Shown here: piece after piece, positions 20,041 through 21,943 of the stretch | Position numbering within the stretch: the stretch's first letter is position 1 | Layout: every line of letters begins with the position of its first letter | Virus record (IMG/VR): IMGVR_UViG_2541047952_000001 | Direction: 5' to 3' (one strand) | Length of the DNA: 41,595 nt | DNA from: a virus | Taxonomy: Duplodnaviria > Heunggongvirae > Uroviricota > Caudoviricetes | Made by a program: the position numbers and the translations under genes | Notes under the pieces: model-generated | Databases searched by the model: none | What the model was told of the DNA's origin: nothing | Seen by the model: the letters and a program-made list of their open reading frames with translations, nothing else

Positions 20041-20175
20041 AGCTTTCTCCTTTTTAGGTAGTTAAGTTGTTACGAGTTGCAAGAATACAACATTAACAAC
20101 TTTTATCACAACTTTTAGGTGTTGGAAAGCTAAAACATAAAGTTGTAACCTCATCAAAAAAGAGAGGGATATGTT
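20041..20175. promoter_or_regulatory. divergent cro/cI promoter-operator region (OR-like)
   Basis: 135-bp intergenic region between divergent HTH repressor genes. Repeated ACAACTT(T) half-sites in both orientations (20095..20103, 20108..20116, and reverse at 20140..20148); the motif recurs in the OL-like region near 21800..21850. Confidence 0.5.
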
Positions 20176-20862
20176 GTGAAAACACTGGCAGAACGATTAA
20201 AGATAGGTAGAGAGAAAGCTGGCATGAGCCAAGCTCAACTAGCTGAAAAAATTGGACTTTCACAACAATCTGTAGCCAAAATAGAGAATGGCGAAACTCT
20301 ACAACCGCGCAAAATTAAAGAAATTGCAAAAGTTTTAGGTGTATCACAAAAGTGGTTACAACTTGGTATTGAAGACAACGCATCCATACCTGATCTTGTT
20401 GTAAAAGAAGCAGAAAGCACCGCATTAGACCCCGATATTTTCGTAAACATTCCTGTTTTAGATGTCGAGTTATCGGCAGGTAACGGATGTCTGGCTGAAA
20501 TAGTTGAATCAGCTATTGACTGGTTTCCGTTAAGAAGAGCAGATTTGAGAAAATCTGGCGTATGTGCATCTAATGCCAAGATCGTAAAAATATGGGGGAA
20601 CAGTTTATTACCGGTTCTCAATAATGGAGATCTTGTTGCCGTTGATATTTCTCAAACCGTTCCTATTCGTGATGGCGATCTTTATGCCGTACGAGATGGT
20701 GTATTGCTAAGGGTTAAAATACTTATCAACTTACCTGACGGTGGCTTGATTCTTAGAAGCTTCAACAAAGATGAGTACCCAGATGAAATACTCACCTTTG
20801 AAGATAGACGAGCCAGAATTCATGTTATAGGTAGGGTATTCTGGTCATCGCGAACTTGGTAA
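20176..20862 (+). CDS. CI-like prophage repressor (HTH plus S24 LexA-type autopeptidase domain)
   Basis: GTG start; N-terminal HTH (MSQAQLAEKIGLSQQSVAKIENGE) and C-terminal S24-like region (KIWGNSLLP...LLRVK). Confidence 0.85.
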   Translation: MKTLAERLKIGREKAGMSQAQLAEKIGLSQQSVAKIENGETLQPRKIKEIAKVLGVSQKWLQLGIEDNASIPDLVVKEAESTALDPDIFVNIPVLDVELSAGNGCLAEIVESAIDWFPLRRADLRKSGVCASNAKIVKIWGNSLLPVLNNGDLVAVDISQTVPIRDGDLYAVRDGVLLRVKILINLPDGGLILRSFNKDEYPDEILTFEDRRARIHVIGRVFWSSRTW

Positions 20863-21735
20863 TGCATCGAAAAGCATTTCTTCAGAAATAATTTTAAGTT
20901 TTGCACCATTATCATCCCTATAAGATATAGCCTTTTCGATCTTCCTTCCGTGACTTGAGAATTTCCAATCACGGGAGGAAAGCGTCCCAATTACTAAAAA
21001 ATCCAACTTTTGAGTAATTCCACTACTGATGTTCCCACCAGCATTTTTAATCAAATTTTCAACTACGGCTCTCTTTCCTGCAACAAAAGTGCCTGTAAGA
21101 CAATAGGTTTTACCCTCTAACTCTATCGAAGCCCCTACATCAATAGGCAGCCTGGTCGCCAAACCATCCACCACCCCACTTTCCAAGTCACATCCTGTGA
21201 AGTCTACTAATGCCTTATGTAGAGTTAAACTCTCATCTTCAGTAATAACACCATCTTTAAGAATTTCCTTTACAAGTGCATAAAGTTTTTTTCCTGGGTA
21301 GTTGTTCTTCAAAGCTCCATTTTGCTCAAGCCACCAATTAAGATATCTTATTTCTTCTTGAGTTAAGTTCCGATCAGCAATTAATCCTTTACATAGTCCA
21401 TTAAGTAAATGGACATCTACATCCTTGGAGTAAAAATCAATTTCAGGGATATCAAGAATTTCCCTCTGTATTTGGAGAAGGCTATTTTTAAGGTCATCAC
21501 GTTCTTCTGATGTGATTATTCCATCCGCAAGAATATCCGACACCCGTGCTGATAGACTTTTTATAACTCCATTATTGATAATCTGCTTTGCTTCAAGTAA
21601 CCATGTATCTAAGTAAAGAACCTCCTCTTCACGGACAACTCCATCTGCAATGATTCCATCAATGATGCTAATCAAGTTAGCAAATAACTTGTCCCGGTTC
21701 TGTGTGTAATTAAAAGCGTAAAGCGCGTCTTCCAT
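20845..21735 (-). CDS. TerB-like repeat plus BRCT-domain protein, unknown function (immunity-region moron)
   Basis: Preferred start ATG at 21735 (MEDALYAF...) with AGGAGG 5 nt upstream. Four tandem roughly 38-aa repeats share an ADG-[VI]-[IV]-x-x-EE core; the C-terminus (GKTYCLTGTFVAGKRAVVENLIKNAGGNISSGITQKLDFLVIG) is BRCT-like as in LigA. The 3' end overlaps the cI 3' end by 18 nt. Confidence 0.7.
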   Translation of the reverse strand: MEDALYAFNYTQNRDKLFANLISIIDGIIADGVVREEEVLYLDTWLLEAKQIINNGVIKSLSARVSDILADGIITSEERDDLKNSLLQIQREILDIPEIDFYSKDVDVHLLNGLCKGLIADRNLTQEEIRYLNWWLEQNGALKNNYPGKKLYALVKEILKDGVITEDESLTLHKALVDFTGCDLESGVVDGLATRLPIDVGASIELEGKTYCLTGTFVAGKRAVVENLIKNAGGNISSGITQKLDFLVIGTLSSRDWKFSSHGRKIEKAISYRDDNGAKLKIISEEMLFDALPSSR

Positions 21736-21798
21736 ACAACCTCCTTTTTTTGATAATCCTTGCACTCCTTGGCTACTCGTTCAAACCACATAAAGTTG

Positions 21799-21827
21799 TT
21801 GACAACATTCAAAACCACAACTAAATT
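21799..21827 (+). promoter_or_regulatory. PL-like early-left promoter with overlapping operator
   Basis: TTGACA (21799..21804), 17-nt spacer, TAAATT (21822..21827) on the plus strand; the -35 sits within the inverted repeat GTTGT-tg-ACAAC, with ACAACTT-type half-sites nearby. Confidence 0.5.
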
Positions 21828-21943
21828 ACAACTTAAAGGTGTTAAAACAATGAGCAGGCAGGACGCCCACGAAGTAGCCGCCTGGGGCATATGAAGTCCA
21901 GGATGATTCGTTAGCAACAAAAAAGCGCCCTACAGGACGCTTA

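Follow-up and report, generated by a model that had tools for sequence, protein, structure and literature searches.

Predicted operators and promoters of a 434-related immunity cassette with a BRCT-domain gene in an Escherichia coli lambdoid prophage

The window analysed here, a stretch of 41,595 nucleotides (IMG/VR record IMGVR_UViG_2541047952_000001), is part of an Escherichia coli lambdoid prophage of the SfIV/SfV/e14-like group. Its immunity region, the subject of this work, holds a cro-like gene, a cI repressor gene and a gene for a BRCT-domain protein, with copies of the heptamer ACAACTT clustered in the cro/cI intergenic region (the right operator region, OR) and again near the promoter PL (the left operator region, OL). 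The gene order was taken from RefSeq annotation and our own scans (Table 1). The divergent cro and cI genes are separated by 135 bp, a short operator/promoter region of the lambdoid kind, and the BRCT gene converges on cI with an 18-bp overlap of the two 3' ends (20845-20862) that is retained in all the relatives compared below. How far does the exchangeable part of this region reach? The heteroimmune Shigella phage SfIV is 98.7-98.8% identical up to 19774 and again from 21845, with no similarity in between by BLAST, and the exchangeable cassette is therefore the interval from 19775 to 21844; its right boundary lies just downstream of the predicted PL start. A 2.6-kb query that takes in the cassette and its edges (19700-22300) has a 100% identical counterpart in a chromosomal prophage of E. 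coli Res13-Sevr-PER07-33 and is covered to at least 80% in 47 of 5,426 complete E. coli genomes; sequenced phages align to the flanks of this query only and not to the cassette. SfIV and SfV share with the prophage the backbone, flanks that are 96-99% identical, the place of PL and the transcribed leader behind it, but they have their own cro, cI and TGTACC-type repeats, and between cI and PL they carry a terminator and no BRCT gene.

Table 1. Coordinates of genes, predicted promoters and operator elements in the immunity region (positions in the window)
Feature	Coordinates	Strand	Details
ymfL / CII-like gene	19218-19769	-	RefSeq annotation and scans
Exchangeable immunity cassette	19775-21844	.	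cro, OR, cI, BRCT gene, OL/PL; limits of SfIV similarity
cro-like gene	19792-20040	-	82 aa; YdaS/Cro family (Pfam PF15943, E 7.8e-15)
Heptamer A	20064-20070	-	ACAACTT; just downstream of predicted PR start; present in all relatives; dyad partner 2/7
PR (predicted)	20082-20111	-	-35 TTGTGA 20111-20106; 18-bp spacer; -10 TATTCT 20087-20082
Heptamer E	20087-20093		ACAACAT; in PR spacer
Heptamer B	20096-20102		ACAACTT; in PR spacer
OR-C	20108-20122	.	ACAACTTTTAGGTGT; full dyad, second half 7/7; conserved in all relatives; OR2-like
PRM (predicted, weak)	20123-20151	+	-35 TGGAAA 20123-20128; 17-bp spacer; -10 TAACCT 20146-20151
OR-D	20132-20146	.	AAAACATAAAGTTGT; weaker half 5/7; OR3-like
cI repressor gene	20176-20862	+	228 aa; 434-like helix-turn-helix and S24 autopeptidase domain (Pfam HTH_3, Peptidase_S24)
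BRCT-domain gene	20845-21735	-	296 aa; Pfam BRCT
P_brct (predicted BRCT gene promoter)	21756-21784	-	-35 TTGAAC 21784-21779; 17-bp spacer; -10 AAGGAT 21761-21756
OL-F	21785-21799	.	ACCACATAAAGTTGT; weaker half 5/7 here, 6-7/7 in Providencia; mean column conservation 0.97
PL (near consensus)	21799-21827	+	-35 TTGACA 21799-21804; 17-bp spacer; -10 TAAATT 21822-21827
Heptamer H	21817-21823		ACAACTA; overlaps PL spacer and -10
OL-I	21828-21842	.	ACAACTTAAAGGTGT; full dyad 7/7; in all relatives
68-aa open reading frame	22001-22204	+	no assigned function; RefSeq annotation and scans

What kind of repressor does the cassette encode? CI combines an HTH_3 with a Peptidase_S24 domain (Pfam). Across 22 homologues Ser143 and Lys181 never vary and Ala101-Gly102 hardly does, as in a self-cleaving S24 protein, and by analogy with the LexA/CI family SOS-inducible self-cleavage is to be expected. 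The closest solved structure to the DNA-binding domain is the 434 repressor (1per/1r69, which heads the PDB matches at E 4e-13 and about 50% identity), and the recognition helix reads QQSVAKIENG, compared with QQSIEQLENG in 434. Homologues of CI abound across the Enterobacterales (57-93% identical), with QQS(V/I)AKIE nearly invariant. The Gln-Gln-Ser start of the 434 helix reads ACAA, and therefore the same start in CI predicts recognition of ACAA. The 434 repressor has six 14-bp operator sites of the type ACAATnnnnATTGT, in which the outer four bases are conserved (ACAA...TTGT; PMC1636474). The sites described below are instead ACAA-N7-TTGT or ACAA-N7-GTGT and measure 15 bp in all 17 loci, so that the 14-bp form ACAA-N6-TTGT is not the one found here; the N-terminal domain of CI appears to fit an ACAA...TTGT operator one base longer than that of 434. 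A search of 50,697 phage records for a characterised phage of this immunity found none; the nearest repressor there is 44.5% identical. Cro belongs to the YdaS family, is unrelated to the repressor and has a weak match to a Xylella prophage Cro.

A preliminary description, made from the letters of this DNA alone, had counted three copies of ACAACTT(T/A) in the cro/cI intergenic region and three more on the PL side, and had read them as half-sites of OR and OL operators for one repressor. The clustering at both places holds; the count was approximate, there being four exact copies and one near-copy in OR and two of each near PL. The exact heptamer is found 12 times in the window, where 4.9 copies are expected, and none of 100 shuffles reaches 12. 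Its copies in OR start at 20064 (-), 20096 (+), 20108 (+) and 20140 (-), and those near PL at 21793 (-) and 21828 (+); copies with one mismatch start at 20087 (ACAACAT), 21802 (ACAACAT) and 21817 (ACAACTA). The two intergenic regions (135 + 117 bp = 252 bp, both about 32-34% G+C) thus contain six exact copies, against a mean of 0.24 in simulations that preserve the local AT-rich dinucleotide content of both (0 of 20,000 simulations). A motif just as frequent throughout the prophage would have refuted the preliminary description, by its own criterion; that objection falls away, for in no other 135-bp stretch of the window does ACAACWW occur more than twice.

Is the arrangement peculiar to this prophage? 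The cassette was compared with 16 relatives from about ten genera whose cI proteins are 58-85% identical. The first 12 loci (cI 58-80%) come from Citrobacter, a contig labelled Pseudomonas lundensis, Rosenbergiella, Tatumella, Providencia (five), Proteus and Serratia (two), and four lineages were added from Salmonella, Hafnia, Yersinia ruckeri and Morganella. In all 16, ACAACTT clusters lie at matching positions, about -120 to -30 from the cI start and again about 1.6 kb downstream; in the one locus without the intervening BRCT gene (L011) the second cluster follows directly after cI. The motif positions are kept in both clusters while the flanking DNA has diverged. A side observation concerns the contig labelled Pseudomonas lundensis (strain I31), which carries a full enterobacterial-type cassette (cI 71% and BRCT protein 77% identical), together with the PL leader that the E. 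coli and SfIV phages share; its label may reflect contamination or mis-binning and not a Pseudomonas host.

Anchored, gap-free comparisons of these loci show that the heptamer, rightly picked out as a motif, is not on its own the functional unit, which is a 15-bp dyad, ACAACTTwwAGGTGT. Four such dyads are positionally conserved, two in OR and two in OL. With up to two mismatches, the degenerate 15-mer finds 13 strand-wise matches in the window (1.45 expected), and eight of the 13 are these four dyads, each found on both strands. Among the relatives, OL-I is inverted (ACACCTTAAAGTTGT) in five, as expected of a symmetric site. Four of the five Providencia loci have GATGT in place of GGTGT in the weaker half of OR-C and also of OL-I, so that two separate sites have changed in concert. 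Several other candidates were set aside. A tail-to-tail palindrome, AAGTTGT-TG-ACAACAT (21793-21808), was rejected as an operator on the grounds that its right half is not conserved in relatives; the conserved site extends leftward from the 21793 copy (21785-21799), and the copy at 21802 is not conserved. The dyad-like ACAACTTTATGCTGT (22873-22887), about 1 kb downstream of PL, is probably fortuitous, as the DNA there is 98.8% identical in the heteroimmune SfIV, and approximate matches that fall within cI (20328) and within the BRCT gene (20888) were likewise judged fortuitous.

The same comparison marks four promoters by their conserved hexamers and by spacers that vary in sequence and keep their length. 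PR, toward cro, has a predicted start near 20075; its hexamers stand at a fixed position in most relatives, and in several of them the -10 is TATAAT. PRM, toward cI, is predicted to start near 20158, ahead of a Shine-Dalgarno sequence and of the GTG codon at which cI begins; its layout is kept in relatives with a -10 of the form TAnnnT. OR-C shares four bases with the -35 of PR and abuts the -35 of PRM, its centre falling near -43 of PRM, and OR-D lies within the PRM spacer and touches the -10, with its centre 24 bp from that of OR-C. On the other side of the cassette, PL matches the consensus at 10 of 12 positions, is the top promoter match in 19700-22300 and is conserved in all relatives. 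The preliminary description had recognised this TTGACA-17-TAAATT promoter at the right-hand cluster, reading away from the immunity region, and rightly so; it had seen one promoter there, and two divergent ones are now predicted. OL-I adjoins the PL -10 and extends over the predicted start near 21834. OL-F sits exactly between the divergent -35 hexamers of PL and of P_brct, the predicted promoter of the BRCT gene, with its centre near -42 of the former and -43 of the latter. But is the promoter at 21799-21827 really a PL? Direct support comes from SfIV. A separate TTGACA promoter stands at the homologous place in SfIV (corresponding to 21799-21844), flanked by TGTACC repeats that recur in the SfIV cro/cI intergenic region, and the same transcribed leader (AGCAGGCAGGACGCCC...) follows PL here and in SfIV; on this positional homology the promoter is called PL. 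A search of the PL leader for an RNA element gave no Rfam match and a folding z of -0.1. The first reading of the two clusters as OR and OL of one repressor thus finds support in the conservation across the 16 relatives, in the SfIV homology and in the 434-like CI.

Not all copies of the motif fall into dyads. Heptamers A, E, B and H are conserved too, standing alone or in direct repeats with a spacing of 9-12 bp; no symmetric partner was found for any of them, and with second halves that match at only 1-3 of 7 positions they were rejected as 15-bp dyads. Which protein would they serve? The heptamers, and above all these four, could be bound mainly by Cro or by another protein encoded in the module and not by CI. 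Direct-orientation copies at such distances (ACAACATTAACAACTT; ACAACTTTGACAACTT in Providencia) are unfit for a symmetric CI dimer, and the YdaS-family Cro co-diverges with cI and with the motif. Yet the 434-like helix of CI predicts recognition of ACAA, the four best sites are genuine dyads, all of one length, and the motif and the CII-like gene are not inherited together. Since Cro and CI use the same operators in lambdoid switches, binding by Cro would complement binding by CI and not replace it. As an alternative to CI, this explanation seems rather unlikely to us.

The less familiar part of the cassette is the BRCT gene and its promoter. P_brct has a predicted start near 21749, and the Shine-Dalgarno sequence and ATG of the BRCT gene follow about 14 nt after it. 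In relatives that carry the gene the hexamers are conserved (the -35 there being TTGATT) and the spacer varies in sequence with its length constant; in L011, the locus without the gene, both P_brct hexamers are absent and OL-F, PL and OL-I are kept. A repeat finder showed that the unit formed by OR-C and the PRM -35 and that formed by OL-F and the P_brct -35 are inverted copies of each other, and that the two leaders with their Shine-Dalgarno sequences are likewise inverted copies. The geometry of the two is identical and of PRM type, with a 15-bp operator abutting the -35 of a weak core promoter. Since CI bound at OR-C must be compatible with transcription of cI, and OL-F is placed identically with respect to P_brct, the BRCT gene is probably expressed in lysogens and stimulated by the repressor, as far as geometry can tell. 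The stronger form of this idea, in which OL is a second PRM-like switch where CI at 21785-21799 activates the BRCT gene and so gives it a repressor-dependent, lysogen-only function, is a tentative proposal that may well not hold.

Could the BRCT gene be an early lytic gene instead, its promoter repressed by CI at 21785-21799 or constitutive and independent of CI? The gene adjoins PL, the -35 and -10 hexamers of P_brct are conserved in their own right, and activation is not among the measured results. There is, however, no operator over the P_brct core, the sole nearby site lying at about -50 to -36, a placement shared with OR-C at PRM, where it must be compatible with transcription of cI; the -10, AAGGAT, is a poor one of the sort typical of activator-dependent promoters; and homologues in Vibrio phage K139 and in Aeromonas belong to a lysogenic operon behind cI. 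This alternative, in either form, is unlikely. Whatever its regulation, P_brct points toward cI. No convincing terminator was found in the cI/BRCT overlap region on either strand, and unterminated transcripts from P_brct would run antisense through cI and into cro; some termination or transcriptional interference must operate.

What does the BRCT gene encode? The preliminary description had placed a TerB/BRCT gene between the two clusters. Its position and the BRCT domain are confirmed and the TerB label is dropped, as that family was not found even at E<=10 and has no structural support. The only Pfam match is BRCT (PF00533, residues 207-291, 29 bits against a cut-off of 21.3); in PHROGs the protein falls into phrog_3989, of unknown function, and PADLOC gives a weak partial match to the candidate PDC-S48 (E 2.5e-7, residues 120-252). 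A first structure model from 20 close homologues was poor in the N-terminal half (predicted local distance difference test, pLDDT, 65). An AlphaFold model from a 47-sequence alignment that took in Vibrio and Aeromonas homologues reached a pLDDT of 87.5 and a predicted template modelling score of 0.83. In this model about 200 N-terminal residues form paired helices with four DG-(V/I)-(V/I)-T-x-E-E-like repeats, followed by the BRCT domain, which superposes on the DNA-end-binding BRCT domain of RFC1 with a root-mean-square deviation of 2.1 Å over 87 columns. The BRCT domain alone was matched; for the helical N-terminal domain there was no recognised family and no structural match. A search of the literature on the BRCT protein in lysogeny modules, or on its function, found no publication.

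The gene is co-inherited and co-diverges with cro and cI in 15 of the 16 relatives and always converges on cI. Full-length homologues at a greater distance (about 33% identity) follow cI directly and on the same strand in Vibrio phage K139 and in an Aeromonas P2-like prophage; the K139 operon, cI-orf2-glo-int, has an annotated lysogenic promoter and start site. Stand-alone homologues also occur in integrase/resolvase islands (L054, L056, L057). The one in Alteromonas has a KAP NTPase and a DUF2806 protein as neighbours, and the one in Litorivivens overlaps an ion-channel gene; these neighbourhoods hint at an association with defence islands. If OL is a second PRM-like switch, the protein might be an exclusion or defence factor encoded by a single gene and sensing DNA ends, or a modulator of prophage induction comparable to Hex of phage 434.

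Putting these elements together, we think it likely that the two clusters are OR and OL of one 434-like repressor, with PL at 21799-21827, and that OL also carries the predicted promoter of the BRCT gene. CI is predicted to bind the 15-bp dyads. At the strong site OR-C it would shut off PR and permit or stimulate PRM, in the manner of OR2 of lambda and 434. At the weaker OR-D, inside PRM, it would limit cI expression when repressor levels are high, like OR3. At the strong OL-I, over the PL start, it would repress PL, and the weaker OL-F would stand back-to-back between PL and the weak divergent P_brct. Transcription of the BRCT gene in lysogens would then either tolerate the repressor or be activated by it. 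Judged from the sequence, this appears to be an ordinary lambdoid switch with a new, 434-related immunity specificity. It departs from the textbook in its 15-bp dyads, in having two dyads plus lone or directly repeated heptamers in each region, and in a predicted second, PRM-like promoter within OL.

Several points weigh against this picture. In a generic promoter scan only PL passes; the three others, PR, PRM and P_brct, agree with the consensus at 7-8 of 12 positions and are recognised solely by their conservation. The five closely related Providencia loci among the 16 relatives make the spacers look more conserved than they are. Each region has two clear dyads and not three as in lambda and 434, the extra copies being lone heptamers, and there is no sequenced phage isolate with a repressor more than 45% identical. 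An operator abutting a -35 hexamer could also, in principle, repress and not activate. As for the notion that AT-rich intergenic composition or a recent local duplication produced the clustering, which would then have no regulatory meaning, the low G+C of both regions and the apparently fortuitous copies at 21802 and 22873 speak for it, but it is extremely improbable given the excess over composition-preserving simulations, site positions conserved across genera while spacers diverge, and relatives whose cI divergence shows that they are not recent transfers of one sequence.

How does the cassette compare with known systems? In lambda the centre of OR2 lies about 42-43 bp ahead of PRM, a weak promoter, and rexAB, expressed in lysogens, lies between cI and OL. 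OR-C and OL-F stand at about the same distance from their weak promoters, and the BRCT gene occupies the same position as rexAB, an accessory gene between cI and OL. In contrast to rexAB, which is co-transcribed with cI from PRM, the accessory gene here lies on the opposite strand with a PRM-like promoter of its own in OL, and the Rex proteins are unrelated to the BRCT protein. The K139 homologue Orf2 is full-length (33% identity) and is also encoded beside the repressor, but K139 is P2-like, orf2 follows cI and shares its strand, and the function of Orf2 is unknown. Phage 434 is a close parallel: the repressors share a homologous N-terminal domain with the Q-Q-S helix start, cI and cro are divergent, an operator abuts the PRM -35 and overlaps PR, half-sites begin with ACAA and end with TTGT, and a second set of operators lies at PL (PMC1636474). 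It differs in its 14-bp sites (PMC1636474), where the cassette has 15-bp ones, two clear dyads to a region, and lone heptamers besides. Gln33 of the 434 repressor is Lys here, 434 Cro is related to the repressor domain whereas the Cro here is an unrelated YdaS-family protein, and the cassette has an extra convergent gene inside the immunity region. Hex of 434 is a second immunity-region protein that is made in lysogens and modulates RecA-stimulated cleavage of the repressor (PMC3564112). A functional analogy with the BRCT protein is possible; the two are likened by role, with no similarity of sequence or domains expected, and hex differs in overlapping cI on the same mRNA.

The surroundings of the cassette offered some further observations. 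In the identical prophage, the RefSeq entries downstream of the replication genes (about 16465-17935, - strand) include a PerC-family transcriptional regulator (17441-17935), a phage N6-adenine methyltransferase (16788-17441) and a LexA-family regulator of short length. The PL-side early region common to SfIV has a sub-threshold match to the Rfam small RNA family STnc100 (22724-22947, +; E 9e-7), which scores 41.6 bits where the gathering score is 47. An ECs1072-family gene (22179-22613, -; phrog_5286, function unknown) opposes the PL operon in a moron-like arrangement and is followed by a strong intrinsic terminator with an 8-bp stem and TTTTTTG (21923-21942, -).

The analysis defines an operator code, promoters and exact cassette boundaries for an immunity type that has no sequenced phage isolate and is present in the 47 complete E. 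coli genomes mentioned above and in many other Enterobacterales; these can serve prophage annotation, the prediction of heteroimmunity and engineering. The switch itself is textbook. What stands out is the BRCT gene, co-inherited with the repressor across genera and apparently wired to it through a PRM-like promoter, which may represent an unrecognised lysogen-expressed function in defence or in the control of induction.

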